DNA of 63,887 bases, the filler included, from Dimargaris cristalligena (Eukaryota), in assembly GCA_003614675.1 (NCBI GenBank). It is 11 parts of 11 records of this genome, joined end to end, with 100 filler letters (N's around TTAATTAATTAA, not from the genome) between each part and the next. Parts side by side here need not be neighbours in the genome. Positions count along the whole stretch, not along the records: positions 1 to 5,929 come from ML003570.1; 10 more parts are not named here. One strand, given 5' to 3'. Below, piece after piece: positions 995 to 59,124 of the stretch; the stretch's first letter is position 1; each line of letters begins with the position of its first letter. Both the position numbers and the translations under genes were made by a program. The notes under the pieces are model-generated. The model searched no databases and was not told the DNA's origin. It worked only from the letters and a program-made list of their open reading frames with translations.

Positions 995-1207
995 CTATTT
1001 CTTAGCATCATGGCTCTTACAGTAGGCCCCAATACCCTTTTTGGTAACATACCAACTAGCCCCCGCAGCAGCAGCCTTGGTTGAAAATGAACAGAAACCA
1101 TGCTTGGTGAGCTGCTGGGAAGTAGTGGATTCAGCAGGGTTAGCTTGAGCCATGCCAGCAGTAGTAATGATGGCCAGGATGAGAGCAGTGGCAGACAAAA
1201 CCTTCAT
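995..1207 (-). CDS. Small secreted prepro-peptide (70 aa) with a Lys-rich C-terminal segment
   Basis: MKVLSATALILAIITTAGMAQA is a classical signal peptide ending AQA. It is followed by a short pro-like region and a 34-aa segment with 6 Lys and 2 Cys. Confidence 0.7.
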   Translation of the reverse strand: MKVLSATALILAIITTAGMAQANPAESTTSQQLTKHGFCSFSTKAAAAGASWYVTKKGIGAYCKSHDAKK

Positions 1208-1228: not shown

Positions 1229-1452
1229 TGTTGAAGAATATGTTCCTACATGTTCTTTATCCTATCCTATTTTCATCCAATTACATTAGTTTATTCTACT
1301 ATCATGAGATCATTCATATTAGCCACTTACATTTCACCCCACAGAAAATTACAGTTCAATAAAACTAACCACCTAGAGGCACCTACTGTCCTCTAGCTGC
1401 TTTCTTCCCTTCCTTCCAGTTTTATTTCCTTTAAGTCCTTAGTATTTCAACA
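1229..1452 (+). mobile_element. Solo LTR, family A (Ty1/copia-like ends), copy 1
   Basis: TGTTGAA...TTCAACA termini, internal AATAAA, 5-bp TSD AGGAT (1224-1228 and 1453-1457). Three further copies in the window. Confidence 0.9.
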
Positions 1453-3629
1453 AGGATGTGGGTGGGTTGGGAAGTGATGGAAAAGGATAATATTCAGTTG
1501 CTAAAGACAAACTGTTTGGGAAAGCGAGTAGGAGGGGATGATTATGTAGATAAGTGGACTTATTTGACAAAAGTAGGGAGCAGCTAGTGTAGTATTTATA
1601 CACAGGGGAATAGAAGTAAATGACTTCTGATGGCCACTCATTTTATAAGGAAGGACTTTATTTCTGCAGATATAGTAGTCGGAATACCAACTTATTGAAC
1701 AGCACTGGCCAGCCCAGTATATCTGGCAGCAAGTTTTGGTCCAATCTATTGAAGAATGCATCAACCACTTATCACAAATGTGGTGCAGGTTGATTAAATG
1801 GACACCCTTGGCCTCGTATCTATTTTTGGGATATTATTATTCCCTCTAAGTAGCACAGCTTGTAATTTTAGTGGTGGACCTTAACCGTGGCTAGTTCATA
1901 AACCCTGTATTTATTTGTGAAGTACGCCACTCAAATCTGAGATCTTAGCCAGCATCAGCCTCGTTTCTAGCACCCCTGCCTAGTGTACTGCTTTGCCACT
2001 TCCCCTTTCATTTGGTGCCATAAGTTTGACATTAGCCAATACTAAACTCCGAGCCCACTAAAAGGAAAGGTTCTATAGACAGGCCTGTTTAGCTATTAAT
2101 GAGTATTTTGCCTAATATGCTGTTGTGCTTGTCCAAACCAACTGTCCCCCTTAGTATTCATCAAATTGGTGTGAATTCTTGATTTTTCAAAAATATATCA
2201 AGGACAAGGGGGCGTGCAAGGAAAGAGGAGCAATTCGGCTAAAATTCGATCCCAACAACTCGTGAAGGGCCTTCGCTGGTGGCATTGGAACCAAAATTTA
2301 AAGAGGAAGAGCCGGAGGGGTTCTAGGGTTGTCGGAAACTAGCCACAGCGCCTGTGTCTCTAACACAATATGGGTGGTGCTCACCATGGATTGGGGGCAC
2401 AGTACCCTTGCAAACCTACTTTTGGATGACTCGAACTCATTGCCGCCTCCTATGGCGTACTTTAATTTTTTTACCACCTGATATCTGGCTTTACAGTTGG
2501 ATTTTCCTGCCGATATTATAAACGTGAAACATTTTTCTGAGTGAAGTTAATAATAGTGAGGACTCAAAAAACTCAATAGTAATTGCTTGACCACTAGAAA
2601 TCCCTTGGTGGCCGGGTCAACTAGGTCCATATGGTCAGTATCACAATTGTAGACGGCTTAAATGACCCCCTGAGGCTATTAAATACCGTGTCTACTAATA
2701 ACAGGGTGACCAGCCAGCTAGTACTTATTGGCAATGGGGGAGGGGGAGATACTTAATGGCAATGGGCGTAAAAGGGGGTGAGTAAATGAAGTATCGTTAG
2801 GGATACCATTATTGATTATAAACTCCTACCAACGATCAATCCAACAAAACTAATGTTTTGCTTGCTTTTATCCTGCCAATGTCTATTCTGGCATTTTCCA
2901 TCCTATCGATACTATGATATACTCTTGCAATTATTTATTTATTGATATATTTCCAACGAGTCCATTCACCATAGCTTTAGTTGGCAACCCTTTTGTACCT
3001 CATTTCATAGAACGATTGGCGTTTCTATACTACTCAAATTTGCTCATAAAATATGCTGGAGTTCTATGAGGGAAATATAGTAGTAGTCTACCCATTGAAT
3101 TTTGTATTTGGCGAATATTATTTTCTACTGGTAATTCCCAAGTGCTTCAAAAACTGTTATTATTTGTTTCCTATGGTCATACCCATTGTCTACCATGAGC
3201 TCCGGCACCTCCAAATCCAGAGTGTCTGTGTCCTTGGCCATTCCCGTACCAGTTGGCTGGGGACCCTCCATTGTGGTTTCTAAACATCCTGAGAAGGAAG
3301 CCAAGATCATTTCGCAGATTCATAAGACTAGTATATTGAGAGTAGAGCCACCCAGAACTGCATATACAAGGGACATACATGACTTTAAACCCATATACCA
3401 CAGGCATTGTAGATAATGCTTAGTGGACTACAATATATTTTCAGACTGCCTATTCATCCTGTACAATTCCTCATTGATGGAGGAGCAGTTGCCACAGGTC
3501 TTAAGCTACTACAATAGTTACTGATATTTGGCCGAAATTTGGGGTTTTATTGGGGATAATGAGTAAGATTGGTATACCATGTGCAAGGTCTTTTACTCTC
3601 TTCAAATAGTCAGAGGGTAACCACAGCAA

Positions 3630-4758
3630 TCACAAATGAATAGTCTTTCCATTACATTTTCGCATATGTATCTTGAAAGAGTTGGCTGATGATAATGTCT
3701 TCCCGCAATTACCACATGTATAAGGGTTCTTCTCGGTGTGTAATCGTGTATATGTCTTGAGATAGCTAGCCGATAAAAATGCCTCTCCGCAATTATCACA
3801 TGTATAAGGATTATCCTCAAAATGTACTACCATGTGTTTCTTAAGATACGTAGGTAGTGAAAATGAGCCTCCGCAATGCACACAGGTATAGGGCTTCCCA
3901 TCGGTGTGAACATGCATGTGTCTCTTGAGATATCTAGTTGCCAAAAATGTCCTCCCACAAATTTCGCAGGCATATGGCTTCTCCCCAGTGTGTGATAGCA
4001 TATGCCTATTAAGATGACATTGCGTTGGAAATGGCTTTCCACAAACCTCGCAAGTGTGAGACTTCGCTTGTAAATGTGGTCCTAAATGAGATTCAAAACC
4101 TCTCTGGGCCGTGTGAGTTTGCAAAATGCCCATGGGTGTAAGGCATCTTATTGTTGTGCATTACCATGTCCTTGCCATTAAAAATGGAATCGGTAGGCCT
4201 GGGTAGTCCACGACAATGACTACTAGAATCCGATTCCAGTAATTGCCTTACCTGCCACCAGAGCGGACTGCCACCCAATGCCAACACACTTGCAACAGCA
4301 GGGTCCCAATCCATACCGGGTAGATTGTTGGCAAGCCTTGAGTCTAAAGGGACATTCTCCCCCTCGCTACCAGTGGCTACTATACCAAGTAGATCACCCT
4401 CTGAATAGGGATAAGAATCGGCTGGCGCAAGTTGATTGCCGACCTTATCTAAATCATGCCACTGTTCAGGACTTAGGTGCTCCAGGGTATCATTGCCACC
4501 CATGGTCTGTTCGAGTTGGTTAATAAATTGGCCTAGTCCATTGTTGTCTAATTGATTTATACAATGTAATATCTCCGATAAAGGCAGGTTATTGGCAGGG
4601 GGTCCTGGAATTGTGTTAGTGGCTACGCCATCAATGTTAAACTGGGGATCATGGGCATAGAGAATTGATTTTTTCTGTTCAGGTTCCGAATCATTTGCTT
4701 CAGAGGTACGGGCGAGGGAGAGCAAAGCCAGAAGTCCAGCGGTTTTGATTGCACTCAT
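3630..4758 (-). CDS. Signal-peptide protein joined to a C2H2 zinc-finger array (5 fingers, 4th degenerate); probable exons 4758-4165 and 4103-3630
   Basis: ORF 4093-4758 starts MSAIKTAGLLALLSLARTSEA. ORF 3630-4133 has CxxC...HxxxH fingers with HTGEKPY-type linkers. A 61-nt GTAATG...CTCAC...CCCAG intron (4164-4104) would join them in frame (355 aa); a frameshift is the alternative. Confidence 0.65.
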
Positions 4759-5165
4759 TCTAGGATAGCTGTATAAAAGTAGGCAGGTATAGCAAAGGAC
4801 AAGGGAGTGTCAGCTAAGACAAAAATGAGAATAGACCAGCACACAGCTTTAATTAGCAATGGAGTTACAAATTTGCTGGTTTGACTTTTTTTTTTGCTTT
4901 TATATTAAATAGTAAGGTGGATAATGAAACCTTGAAAATACTCAACAAAAAGTTCATAGGAGGAGATGGTAGCTGATTGTAGGGAGACTAACATTTATAA
5001 ATATGGTTTGTATGTGGATACAGATGAAACTCACCATATTGACATATAAAGGCTACTTCTAGGTGCCACATTGGTATACTGTGTACCATAAAGTACACCC
5101 CTGACTTAGTAATAGGGTGTATATACCAGCTACATTGTAGAACAAAGCTTAAGCAGTTGCATTTC

Positions 5166-5716
5166 TGTTGGAATATTAAGGACATAAAGAAAATAAAACT
5201 GGAAGTAAGGGAAAAAAGCAGCTAGAGGACAGTAGGTATCTCTAGGTGGTAAGTTTTATTGAACTGTAATTTTAATGGGGTGAAACATAAGTGGCTAACA
5301 TAAATAATCTCATGATAGTGCAACCAAGGGGAAATTCCAACCTGAATAATCAGGAGGATGGCCAACCCAATCATACCCTTCTTCAGGAGGATAACCCACT
5401 GATGTACATGGGGGTCCAATCTACCCCCCTAATGGAGGAGGACAACCCTCTCCCATTGACATAAGAACTACACCCTGCCCCAGAGGGATAAAACCAGCCA
5501 CCCACCCAGCAGACTAGGATTTTGTGTCTTTAAATAAAATACTATTATTCACTAATATACCTGCAGTTATTTTGCATTAACCCTGCTCCACTTGGCTCCA
5601 TTTTCCTCACCCTTCATCCTGCCCTACTTGGCACTAGGTTACAATAGCAGAATAAACTAACATAATTAGGTGAAATAGGATAGGATAAAGAACATGTAGG
5701 AACATATTCTTCAGCA
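5166..5716 (-). mobile_element. Solo LTR, family A, copy 2, interrupted by a family B solo LTR
   Basis: Reverse-complement match to 1229-1452 in two pieces (5166-5318, 5644-5716); TSD ATTTC at 5161-5165 and 5717-5721. Confidence 0.9.
5319..5643 (+). mobile_element. Solo LTR, family B (diverged relative of the Gypsy LTR at 53664)
   Basis: TGCAACC...GGTTACA ends. Shares the ...CCAGAGG(G/A)ATAAAACC and TGTGTCTTT(A/C)AATAAAATACT blocks with the full-length LTR. 4-bp TSD ATAG (5315-5318 and 5644-5647). Confidence 0.9.
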
Positions 5717-5826
5717 ATTTCCACCACCAGTTGAATACAGGCAAACCCCTTTATCAATTAGCACTTCTTCACTAATGGCTAAAACTGACCATGGTCAGAC
5801 AGAATTTAGCATCAATATTGGGGAGG

Positions 5827-5929
5827 TGTAAAGAACTGAACTTAAATCCTTGAAAACTGAACTTTATTTGAAAAGATAGAGGATAAAAGGGAAAGGTAAT
5901 GATAGACTTGCTGTTCCAAGAGGTGGCAG
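5827..5929. repeat. Dispersed repeat family D (TG-starting, LTR-like), truncated by contig end
   Basis: TGTAAAGAACTGAAC...CAAGAGGTGGCAG is nearly identical to 29669-29771. Both contigs terminate inside this repeat. Confidence 0.8.
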
Positions 5930-54031: not shown

Positions 54032-54886
54032 ATGTCTACCCAACAACACCTAAGCAGCCCCCCTCAGGCCATCCAGCATGGGCTACCATCAGGTGCCCTA
54101 GACACCCTCCTCAAGAACGTCAAACCCTTTACAGGAAAACCACCGGGTCCCACTTGGGAATCATGGACGACTTCCCTCACAGCCACCATTGAGGACTACT
54201 ACCCTCAGATGAGCACTGGAGCCCGGTTCCGACTGAAGATTGCACTCCTTCAGGATGATATACGTGACCTCATCATCAAGTCCGGTAAGGACACCACAGA
54301 ACACTTCGAGCCATTCATGACAACCACCTACCTGACTTCTCTGTGGGCAGATTACTACGACACTGCGCTACACTCGGGGACCCTCTTTAAGGGCAAGAAC
54401 ATTCATGTCGCCTGTTCCATTGCTTCGGATGCCGCCTGGCAACTGGGGGGCACCAGCCACTGGTGTACCCAGGTTACAAAGGCACTGCTGGCCGAGTTCC
54501 ACATGGACCTAGAACAAGCCCCCCACGAACTCTGGAACTTTATGGAGTATACTGCAGGGGAGATGGATGAGCACTTCAAATCTATTACCCAAGCAGTTTT
54601 GGCTAGCCAAGCCCGTCAGGCCGCCTTACGTACTGCACCAGGCCAAGGCCCACTAGGCCAAGAAAGTCGAGGGCAGCCAGCTAGTGGCACTAGGGACACC
54701 GGACCTACAACCATAGAATCAATCGTGGCCGCAGTTCTCGCCACCATGAAAGAAGAAACTCCCAACCCCAGTAATCGTGGTAAAGCACGTCGCCGAAAGG
54801 ATCGTCAGGCCAAGATTATGGCAGATCTTCAGGCCGAGGTCAAGCACCTACACCAGCAAGTCAATGATAAGCCGGGAAAAGCATAG
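54032..54886 (+). CDS. gag: Retrotransposon Gag-like protein (284 aa)
   Basis: First ORF after the 5' LTR; VKPFTG...WESW capsid-like start; basic C-terminal patch; no CCHC knuckle seen. Confidence 0.8.
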   Translation: MSTQQHLSSPPQAIQHGLPSGALDTLLKNVKPFTGKPPGPTWESWTTSLTATIEDYYPQMSTGARFRLKIALLQDDIRDLIIKSGKDTTEHFEPFMTTTYLTSLWADYYDTALHSGTLFKGKNIHVACSIASDAAWQLGGTSHWCTQVTKALLAEFHMDLEQAPHELWNFMEYTAGEMDEHFKSITQAVLASQARQAALRTAPGQGPLGQESRGQPASGTRDTGPTTIESIVAAVLATMKEETPNPSNRGKARRRKDRQAKIMADLQAEVKHLHQQVNDKPGKA

Positions 54887-57800
54887 AGGTGGTGAGGGAT
54901 CCCTCTGTACTAGCCGCAATTGTCACTAATAAAACTAGTACTCATACCCTTACCACCAAAGACACACAATCTCATTGGAGACTACTACGGGATGCCACCC
55001 TGGGTGGAGTTCAACTCAAAGCAGCAGCAGATCAAGGCGCAGCAACTAGTGTGATCACCCGAGAGGCAGCCAGCCGCCTACACCTTAAGATCGATCAGCG
55101 GCTAAGACCCCACCTACGAGCCTTCGGGGGACATAGTTATGCCCCAACCCTAGGGACCACCCGGGCCCGATTTGCAACAACTGAATCCCCTAAGAAACGA
55201 TGGATTAGATTCACCGTAATTGAAGCCCACACTGATATTGATGCCCTAATCGGCCGTCATGACCTAGATTCCTTGGACCTCGACCTTATCACCTCATGGG
55301 GTCAGGCAGTTACCCGACAAGCCTCCCCTCTGTCAGCCCCACTAGAAACACCTCAAGTTACCCAAAGGGAAACCCTGGAGCTGAGAGGACTCCCATCTGA
55401 CACCTTTCAGCGGATTGACCCAGCATCCGACCGGGAATTCCAAGCGGCAAATAACCAGTACCCATTACCCACTCGTCAGAGCATTCAATCCCGAGTAGTG
55501 GAGCAACTGGAAGACCAACAAACCAAAACTCAACTACTTGATGAGCTTATGACAGGGCTCCTGGCACTTCGGGAATACCCACCAAGTTGCCCACCACCTT
55601 GCCTACTCACCCCAATATCCCCACCCCTAAGGCATAATGCAAAACTCCTTTTTATCCCACAGGCCCCCCGGAGTCGGGCAGACCGGGAGTTCATGGACAA
55701 GTATATCAAAACCCGTCTCCAGTATGGGGTAGATGAGCCCGGATTTGCCCACGCCAATCTACCTGTGTACAGCCTACCAAAGCCAAATACTGATGCTCGA
55801 CTGGTCATTCTAGATGATAGCTAAGGGAGTACTATCAATATGCACTCCCTCGGAATGCAACTCCCTAGGCTCCATGAGGTACGGGGATTTGTCAATGATG
55901 CTAAGATCATCACCAGCGTTGATCTAGCCTCCTACTTCACACAAATTAGGTTAGCTCCCGAAGTCCGAGATTTCTGGACCTTTGAGGGTGGATCCAATGG
56001 TCGAGTACGTGCAGCACGGCTAGTCCAAGGCAACAGTCAGAGCCCAGCTATTGTGCATGCCCTTCTACTACATGTATTCAATGATATCCCTAGTCTCCGG
56101 GGTCGCCTCTTAGGGTATATCGATAATATATACTTAAAAAGTACTAGTGGTGATGTCCAAAGTCATATTCATGATATTGGTGCACTCATCCGGGGACTTG
56201 CCTCTTGGGGCCTCACTGTAAACCTATCTAAAAGTGAGTTTGCTGGTACCAGAAATGTAGAGATTCTGGGCTATCGTTGGTCACAGAAAAATACCTGGAC
56301 AATTCCAGATCACCGGATTGCAGACCTCCAACAGCTACCTATGCTTAGGACTGTCAAGGACATCCAGCGACTAACTGGTGGTGTCAATGCCATCTCAGCA
56401 CACCTCCCATGGGCAGCTGCACTATTAGCCCCATTTTATGCCCTCACTGGGCTTCGTCGTTTAAACAACACCCATCTGGTGGACCTCAAACCACATTGGG
56501 ATGATCTCAAGGAAGCCCTCCTAGATACGAAGCACCTGTATGAACCACGGCTGGGTGAACCTCTTACACTATGGGTAGATGCTGCTGAGGCAGGAGTAGG
56601 AGCAGTGCTACTTGCCCATCCTAAGGATCAGGGAGACAGGGTAGTCGCATACTTTAGCAAGGCCTTTGATGGACAACAAGGCCAGCGGCATCCCGGGTTC
56701 CGTGAAGCCTGGGGACTAGTGAGGGCAGCTCGGCATTTTTATACATATCTGGATGGTACCATTAACCTCCGGATTGAAGTCGATGCTACTACAGCACTGG
56801 GTATTTTCAACCACAAAGATACATGCCAGGCTGATGAATTAGCAGGCTTCCGTGCTGAACTCGCAAAGCTAGGAATTCATTCCAACATGATATACCATCG
56901 TCCTGGTGAGACTCACCTCACTGCTGACTGGCTATCCCAGGCCCTTCATCGCCAGAGACTATGCAAGCCTACCAAACGTACAGTAGCCACATTAGCAGCC
57001 ATGGAACTTGCCAGCAATGATCCAACCAGTAGCAGTGACGGGGGAGAGGCAGTACACATCTCTCTTACCTCCGATGATGAAGATGATGATGATCCAGAAT
57101 CAGGTACCACCCAACACCTGGGTGAGTCTACAATCATAGCATCCCTGCCCAACACCTGGCACTGGTCAATAACCCCAGAGGACCAAAAAGGCGACACCCA
57201 ACTTGCAAATTGGCACCAGCTCTGCCAGCGACGTGATGTGGAGATTGGTAATGACGATCCATTATTCACCGAGGTTAATGGGATGTCTATTCACAACGGA
57301 CTCCTCTGTCAAATAACCCCAGGTGTATTGGCCGGTACAATGGGGAGTTGGGTCCCCTTAATTCCAACGGCTATGCTGAAGGACACAATCATAAACTGGC
57401 ATAAAGAGCTTTGCCATCCTGGCCAGGAACGGCTACTAGCTTTTGCCCAAACCCGCCTTGCTCACTCGGCCCTGCGAGAGACCATCGATCGGTGTACTAG
57501 GACCTGTCACACTTGTCAGATAAATGCAATAGCCACCATTCGGAACACCCCGCGGTCAACTACATATGGCAACCGAAAACCAGGTGAGCACCTTTACCTT
57601 GATCTTGGTTACATCGGTCAAGTAGGGTCTGATGAGGAGACCCAATTTCTCATTATTGCCGATGCCACTAGCCGGTTTTACCAAGCCATACCACTGGTAC
57701 AATCAACAGCTGCAGATATCATAGAAGGCCTACGTGATGGCTGGATCGGGACCTATGGGAAACTACGTATGATCACTACTGACAATGGCCCACAATTCAC

Positions 57801-59124
57801 TGCCGAAACTCTTCAAACCTATCTTGAGGGCCAAGGGATCCGGCATATATTCTCCTCCCGTAGTCACCCTATCTCAGAATTGGCTGAGCGATATGTCGGG
57901 CTACTAAAGAACTCCCTCCGGAAGTGTTGGAGCCAACATGGTACTGATGACAGCTGGATTCAGTATCTTCCCAGAATCACAGCAGCACACGCAATTATCC
58001 CAGACCCACATACAGGTATCTCACCATGGATGGCCCTCAAAGGCATCGAATCAACCGTAAATACATCCCAACTGGTACTCCACCCGGATACTGATCAGGG
58101 AGTAGAGGGAGTTGCACAATGGGCTATAAACCAAGCCAAGGAACGACGGTCACGAATGCGAAAACTAGCCATGGAAAGGCATAACCAGCATGTTACCCGG
58201 AGGTGTTACATCACCGGAGAACTAGTCACCATTAAGGTGATACCAAAGCCGGCTAACCTGGCCAGTCGACCAGAGCGCAGGATGGGCCCATTCCGAGTCT
58301 TGGAGAGAGCCGGTCTGTCCTACTGATTAGCTAACCTCGATGGAAGTCCCCGGCCCCGAAACGTTCATGGTGACCTCCTCCTCCCATATTACATTAATGA
58401 TGATGAACATGATACTCATTTAGAGGAGACGGTGGCTAATTCAATTGAGCCAATACTGATATCTATACCTAATATCCAAGGAGAAGTTCAGAGTCAAGCC
58501 ACGGGGAATGAAGAAGGCCAAGTACAAACCAGGGCGGACACAAGCGGCGAAGATCAGGACCAGGAGACTACTGGATTAAACACCTCGCCTATAGGTGCAC
58601 AACTCCCGGTAGATAACTCACAGGAGGATTATGATAGTGACTATGGTAGCGATTATGACGACTCTGAAGATGAGGAGGACCAGGAATTAACATCCGAGTC
58701 GGACTCGGGAATACTATCAGATGCTCAACCAGAATGGCCACCACTACACATATATAGCCATGGCACCAAGAGACAAGCTTCTCGGTCACCCCCGCAGGCC
58801 AAAGCATCCCGAACAGACCATAAAAGGCTACGCGAACCATCTAGCCCCACTCTGCGAGCATTCCCCCACCTCCGGGAGAAACTAGACTGGGACACCCGAG
58901 AAACGGATGCCACAAACTCCGAGGACGAGCAGTTGCCCTGGAGTATTGTGCAACCGGGGGAGGCCACCCCCACTCAAAGACAAGAGGTTGATCCTCCTCA
59001 CAGTACCCCCCGACTAAGCGAGGAAGACCACATGAGTCATGACATGGATCATTCGACCCCCCCACAGGAAGAGAATGGCCTTCCCCTAATGGCACAAGAA
59101 CAACACCTCATCCCAGAGGAATAA
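54874..59124 (+). pseudogene. pol: pol (protease-RT-RNase H-integrase-acidic tail): one frame broken by TAA 55822-55824 and TGA 58324-58326
   Basis: ORFs 54889, 55840 and 58432 share a frame. Motifs: ADQGA...LIG (PR), VDLASYFTQ/QG/YIDN (RT), VDAAEAGVGAVL...ADWLS (RH), H-H-C-C, D-D(TDNGPQF)-E and GPF (IN). Confidence 0.92.

Follow-up and report, generated by a model that had tools for sequence, protein, structure and literature searches.

The genome of Dimargaris cristalligena contains a gene family, real, large and apparently undescribed, in which a signal-peptide-like start is combined with C-terminal C2H2 fingers, and the copy found in the DNA analysed here is itself probably dead. Members of the family have a common architecture and a shared start codon, are subject to purifying selection and die frequently, and in one subgroup the DNA-contact residues have been kept. 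The intact members appear to be transcription-factor-like effectors that would leave the parasite through the haustorium and act on promoters in host nuclei, a reading to which we assign a probability of roughly 0.57. An earlier note on this DNA had proposed an effector of this kind; the architecture it described is strongly supported, by intact paralogs, and secretion, delivery and activity are steps that we infer.

Structure and decay of the window copy

The window, by which we mean the whole stretch of DNA analysed (63,887 nucleotides), is composed of 11 joined contigs, and the locus lies on the first of them, C1363 (1-5929). Its features are as follows.

4759..5000, minus strand: upstream non-coding region, homologous across the family and indel-rich (family DNA alignment)
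4696..4758, minus strand: signal-peptide-like leader, residues 1-21 (own heuristic, best 8-mer hydropathy 2.73)
4141..4695, minus strand: acidic family-specific middle region (no Pfam match; 26 own-genome matches of ORF1)
4104..4164, minus strand: candidate 61-nt intron, unsupported (coding in paralogs; donor GTAATG without G at +5)
4074..4140, minus strand: degenerate first finger, both Cys lost, split across two frames (paralog alignments C113, C831, C1128)
3990..4052, minus strand: C2H2 finger 1, canonical (Pfam and ligand inspection)
3906..3968, minus strand: C2H2 finger 2, canonical (Pfam and ligand inspection)
3822..3884, minus strand: C2H2 finger 3, canonical (Pfam and ligand inspection)
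3738..3800, minus strand: finger 4, with Tyr in place of the first His and thus one zinc ligand short (ligand inspection)
3654..3716, minus strand: finger 5, C2HC ending (ligand inspection)
3602..3653, minus strand: sixth-finger remnant, out of frame (shift common to paralog C113)

ORF1 (4758-4093, minus strand; 221 aa) begins with MSAIKTAGLLALLSLARTSEA, in which one Lys is followed by a hydrophobic core, small residues and then an acidic stretch. The signal-peptide-like start described in the earlier note is a real feature that passes our own hydropathy heuristic, with a small residue ahead of the acidic mature start; a cleavage site near residue 21 is our guess for this copy. The acidic D/N/L-rich part, described as about 175 aa, is equally real and corresponds to residues 21-206 (186 aa; D+E 13.5%, K+R 4.9%, N 9.1%, L 11.8%). 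ORF1 has no Pfam match and no KRAB, SET or other known domain. ORF2 (4160-3630, minus strand) encodes a Kruppel-type C2H2 array, the class defined by C-x2-C-x12-H-x3-H units on TGEKP-like linkers, and is matched by Pfam zf-C2H2 and zf-H2C2_2 (E = 1.6e-26 for the latter). The array of five finger units stands as first described, but only three of the five are canonical, one having Tyr for the first His and another ending in Cys; similarly, TGEKP-like linkers are present at two of the four junctions and missing from the other two. Upstream of ORF1, a possible 5' UTR intron at 4769-4868 (minus strand) has a branch-like CTGAC, a pyrimidine tract and a CAG, and a similar AG near 4769 is seen in several paralogs.

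The break between ORF1 and ORF2 had been attributed to a 61-nt intron, whose excision (4164-4104) indeed yields a 355-aa open frame, with the caveat that it could instead be a frameshift in a decaying gene. It was the caveat that was borne out. The end of ORF1 and the start of ORF2 align, codon for codon, with the first and second halves of one paralog finger, which C113, C831 and C1128 read in a single frame, and in the DNA alignment 2 nt are missing near 4114 from the window copy alone, against all three paralogs aligned. This degenerate finger (4074..4140) overlaps most of the proposed intron. A second 2-nt shift after finger 5 (3654), common to C113, puts a sixth finger into another frame; an 11-nt gap following this shift is found only in the window copy, and the ORF2 stop ends at 3630. 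The window copy is thus very probably a frameshifted and decaying pseudogene.

That it is instead a working spliced gene, with an intron at 4164-4104 or, from the better donor GTAAGG, at 4251-4104, seems highly unlikely. Such an intron would excise the degenerate finger and restore the frame, the two donor choices leave open frames of 355 and 326 aa, respectively, neither ORF has a stop outside the break, and the frames are the same in the DNA of a second study. However, restoration of the frame is not diagnostic of an intron, because 69 GT..AG pairs in the tested range achieve it. Moreover, the stretch is coding in all three paralogs, the 2-nt gap is unique to the window copy, the intact long-array members have no need of an intron, donor 4251 is absent from the three paralogs compared, and zinc ligands are lost in fingers 4 and 5. 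The 4164 donor lacks the +5 G that is present at five housekeeping-gene donors in the window, each located where a conserved frame breaks off, but this comparison is weak because the search pattern itself demanded that G. A genuine intron would be expected to fall outside the coding alignment and to have consensus donor and branch-site sequences, which is not the case here, and the 61-nt intron was rejected as the best reading on the coding match in paralogs, the 2-nt gap, the weak donor and the 69 alternative pairs. An assembly error was likewise rejected, since contigs of all four sequencing runs compared span the break with no gaps; one run, from the second study, has the same break and frames with 15 substitutions over 1424-5194, and the remaining three may be the source of the window DNA.

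A family of leader and finger genes

The earlier note had suggested looking for other proteins with a signal peptide and zf-C2H2 fingers, and we found at least 24 intact single-ORF genes with a signal-peptide-like start and C-terminal C2H2 fingers (5 long-array, 10 short and 9 with unrelated middles) and at least 22 broken copies. Both counts are lower bounds, with 150 of 270 candidate loci scored, and some copies scored as broken could conceal real introns. Among 26 long-array loci, 5 are intact, 16 are broken and 3 have no anchor; the remaining two are open, one being cut by the contig end and the other lacking an ATG. The intact long-array paralogs (401-456 aa, 4-8 fingers) have the same leader and acidic region. 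Of the 17 loci of the short group, 10 are intact, 5 are broken and 2 have no anchor, and the proteins of this group, 223-292 aa long, mostly have two fingers; the N-terminal 120 residues are common to the long and short groups (hhalign 98.9%). Other C2H2 loci added nine intact genes that have a leader and fingers but unrelated middles, together with one further broken copy. Overall, the intact proteins measure 223-590 aa and have 1-8 fingers, and 22 of them form 11 groups without a mutual BLAST match ahead of the fingers. A public gene model with the same start exists for one member (P0133, an NCBI hypothetical protein of Dimargaris cristalligena; 238 aa, 100% identity).

In an AlphaFold2 model of the paralog L007, built from a 7-sequence alignment (mean pLDDT 54), seven fingers are folded (pLDDT about 70-90) and most of the remainder is disordered (pLDDT <50 at residues 1-76 and 101-232); within the middle region a short stretch, at about residues 61-108, is helical.

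Several loci deserve separate description. L037 (C644) has an open 436-codon family frame with 7 fingers, but ATA at the shared start, representing either a recent loss or a non-AUG start. The paralogs L015 (C14) and L016 (C474) are 91% identical before the fingers as against 58% in the finger region, which suggests gene conversion of the front or an exchange of the array; the fingers of L015 resemble another pair of the same genome, L099 and L110. In L045, L049, L100, L105, L115, L133 and L139 a leader is combined with C2HC-type fingers that are closely spaced and not joined by TGEKP linkers, and these groups may have a ligand other than DNA.

Relatives and prior descriptions

A word search with the N-terminal 205 residues of L007 gave none among 2236 candidates. 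The N-terminal profile, searched against 1.84 billion representatives, returned 12 matches, ten of which are the family's own members or close variants, as judged by sequence identity alone; the other two, P0009 and P0012, are repetitive proteins and were rejected as relatives and taken as chance matches. No protein of another named lineage was matched by this profile among the 1.84 billion representatives. The short-group profile had 37 matches, one being a member itself and 36 finger-only, while the ESM Atlas gave no usable match for P0002 and only generic C2H2 clusters for P0133, and exact look-up found none of eight proteins. Proteins of three other Dimargaritales species are present in at least one of the collections searched.

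We found no description of the family in the literature surveyed, supplements (with possible secretome tables) and subscription papers lying outside its scope. The word 'zinc' does not occur in the main text of PMC9866270, neither 'zinc' nor 'Dimargaris' occurs in that of PMC9391592, and the accessible portion of PMC10406608 does not describe the family.

The leader as a putative secretion signal

Our leader rule required an uncharged hydrophobic 8-mer near the start, a non-negative charge before it and a small residue at a cleavage-like site. The strict rule is passed by 18 of the 22 intact proteins and the relaxed rule by all 22, the relaxation having been made after the sequences were known; because the 22-protein set was picked by eye, the weight of the test is carried by the controls. 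None of 21 housekeeping C2H2 factors passed (0 of 22 before L133, a frameshifted paralog of L100, was rejected as a housekeeping control), nor did any of 35 outside zinc-finger proteins or 288 internal Met, and 4 of 119 malate dehydrogenases did so. Leaders beyond background were likewise not found on Zn2Cys6 (2 of 30), GATA (0 of 8 loci, after 5 cut loci were dropped) or homeodomain factors (0 of 10). One protein of the window that is likely to be secreted, of GPI type, was not picked up by the rule.

Pooled dN/dS over seven paralog pairs (one gene being used in two of them) was 0.46 for the leader (Fisher p = 0.0006), 0.70 for the middle and 0.49 for the fingers, which points to purifying selection on leader and fingers, with values near 0.5 indicating weak constraint. 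As judged from our own heuristic, its low background and this conservation, the leader is a putative secretion signal. It has no backing from cross-species conservation, because the searches described above turned up no relative of the N-terminal region in any other species.

Alternatively, the hydrophobic start could serve as an ER tether, or be by-passed, with the proteins acting as transcription factors of the parasite itself, either latent and membrane-held or translated from a later start. We consider this unlikely. C2H2 arrays usually work in the nucleus of their own cell, the finger codes match those of the parasite's own factors, and the conserved upstream region could permit other transcript starts. 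However, the hydrophobic core is short (about 8-12 residues) and followed by small and then acidic residues, resembling cleaved signals, and no transmembrane-like stretch was detected past residue 35 in the 22 proteins (19-mer hydropathy at most 1.07). The position of the ATG is conserved in 11 of the 12 family copies that were aligned, with many indels in the DNA upstream, and such a leader occurs on several unrelated middles. If the intact members are secreted, as we favour, their Cys-rich fingers would have to survive the oxidising ER.

Fingers and predicted DNA recognition

Helix positions -1, 2, 3 and 6 are the base-contacting positions of C2H2 fingers. In the two-finger group (n = 11), several members of which have unrelated N-termini, finger 1 has R(-1) in 11, D(3) in 8 and R(6) in 11 proteins and finger 2 has R(-1) in 10 and D(2) in 10, whereas agreement at the non-contact positions 1 and 5 is limited to 3-5 of 11. 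The nearest own transcription factor is L101 for 10 of these 11 proteins. L101, L141, L144 and L127, all C2H2 factors of the same genome, have the contact residues of the two-finger subgroup but no leader, and the last three share its base-contact pair, R..D..R then R.D. We label L141, L144 and L127 'Crz1-like'; Crz1 orthologues are marked by a calcineurin docking motif and a serine-rich region, and these factors are not called Crz1 here, because a pattern search found no calcineurin-docking-like motif in L101, L127, L141 or L144. Applied to the two-finger pair, the Zif268-type code would predict 5'-GNGGCG-3'. This predicted target fits the Crz1 consensus 5'-GNGGCK-3' given in PMC9604740. The long arrays, including that of the window copy, have varied codes without the conserved recognition code of the two-finger group. 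As a separate observation, L143 (C73:13000-18500) consists of two nearly identical ORFs for a housekeeping factor with four fingers, arranged in tandem at a distance of about 1.1 kb, which reflect either a duplication or an assembly repeat.

Improbable, in our judgement, is a second alternative, that the secreted proteins have no part in regulating host promoters, their ligands being zinc, RNA or proteins of the host, either at the interface or in the cytosol of the host cell. Abundant Cys/His sites and the degeneration of several fingers are in line with it, as is the finding that basic NLS-like patches are clear (by a simple pattern) in only 11 of the 22 intact proteins. Scavenging of zinc, however, needs no Arg or Asp at helix positions -1, 2, 3 and 6, and these residues are kept, even across proteins with unrelated N-termini; moreover, many members have the TGEKP-type linkers of DNA-binding arrays.

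Genomic setting

AT-rich and repeat compartments are where effector families turn over. Upstream DNA is AT-richer in the family genes than in housekeeping factors (median GC 0.42 versus 0.49, p = 1e-6), and the window copy sits between high-copy repeats with a CpG-free 5' flank. There is no CpG at 4801-5929 and few at 1-1584, both of which contain high-copy repeats, as expected of methylation-driven decay.

The repeats and CpG-free flank around the window copy, the 22 or more broken copies (16 of the 26 long-array loci among them) and a dN/dS well above that expected of housekeeping factors could also be explained by mostly neutral amplification, in which a once-secreted or chimeric gene was copied in repeat-rich DNA and the intact copies are merely young, but we find this very improbable: the age of the intact pairs is considerable, most segments having a dS of 0.3-1.5, yet their frames are open and dN/dS is <1, recognition residues have been selectively kept, and the 11 mutually unmatched groups among 22 intact proteins are more than a single copying event explains.

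Other parts of the window yielded further observations. A small secreted-type ORF at 995-1207 (minus strand; 70 aa, two Cys) passes the leader rule and has 13 own-genome matches at E up to 1, four of them below 1e-4; it represents a candidate second effector family on the contig of the window copy. A malate dehydrogenase on another window contig has its three best outside matches in the corresponding enzymes of Tieghemiomyces, Dimargaris and Dispira, at 77-78% identity. The contig at 12056-17907 (58% GC, CpG o/e 1.21), with ORFs that by eye are chemoreceptor-, porin- and GGDEF-like, is a probable bacterial contamination or belongs to an associated bacterium, and gag- and pol-like ORFs of an LTR retrotransposon were recognised by eye at 54032-58326 (plus strand).

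Proposed mechanism

According to PMC9866270, Dimargaritales parasitise Mucoromycota and Ascomycota by means of an appressorium and a biotrophic haustorium. Intact members of the family would enter the secretory pathway, leave through the haustorium and reach the nucleus of the host fungus, where they would bind promoters; Dimargaris cristalligena being a haustorial mycoparasite, the target would therefore be a fungal nucleus. The acidic disordered region may serve in activation or partner binding and would recruit or block host machinery. Parasite and host both being fungi, fingers derived from the transcription factors of the former could directly recognise regulatory elements of the latter. 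A more tentative proposal, which we would put at somewhat less than even odds as a whole, is that secretion signals were repeatedly joined to finger pairs from several own transcription-factor classes, giving dozens of factor mimics that read conserved host promoter elements (e.g. GNGGCG stress elements), while the long arrays are fast-evolving and acquire new specificities.

Comparison with known systems

MoHTR1 and MoHTR2 of Magnaporthe oryzae, secreted C2H2 proteins with a single finger, were shown to reach the nuclei of rice cells and to bind specific DNA elements there (PMC7672089), and MoHTR3 has a signal peptide, an NLS and a C-terminal finger (PMC10189765). PMC10189765 also reports that MoHTR-like candidates were detected only in M. 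oryzae among the fungi compared. MoHTR1-3 resemble the Dimargaris family in having an N-terminal signal (putative in our case), C-terminal C2H2 fingers, here also with DNA-contact residues, and a fungus with a biotrophic interface. However, the MoHTRs are small (<300 aa), single-fingered and directed at a plant, whereas the Dimargaris family, which belongs to a fungus-parasitic member of the Zoopagomycota, counts at least 24 intact members of 223-590 aa with 1-8 fingers (401-456 aa and 4-8 fingers in the long group; mostly two in the short). We do not file the family with the MoHTRs, because size and finger number differ and homology is shown in the fingers at most; it is known from genes alone and is likened to them by architecture.

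The fingers also recall animal Kruppel-type arrays, in which the fingers are likewise TGEKP-linked and are rapidly gained, lost and reshuffled from paralog to paralog, and the top solved-structure matches of the L109 finger pair are ZNF568, PRDM9, EGR1 and WT1. In contrast to those arrays, ORF1 of the window copy has no KRAB or SET domain and has a secretion-type leader, and the structure matches are limited to the fingers. TAL effectors of Xanthomonas and TashAT of Theileria are further parasite families acting as DNA-binding regulators in host nuclei, but their DNA-binding folds, delivery routes and hosts differ from those of the Dimargaris family.

Significance

The single window gene is of little import, because it is most likely dead; the significance lies in the family, which supplies some two dozen candidates that can be tested, together with a predicted DNA target. 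To our knowledge, the molecular control of a living fungal host by haustorial mycoparasites is close to unstudied. If the effector reading is true, secreted C2H2 effectors would have arisen again independently, on a larger scale and with multi-finger arrays; the more tentative proposal of factor mimics, if true, would provide a first molecular model of host reprogramming in biotrophic fungus-on-fungus parasitism.
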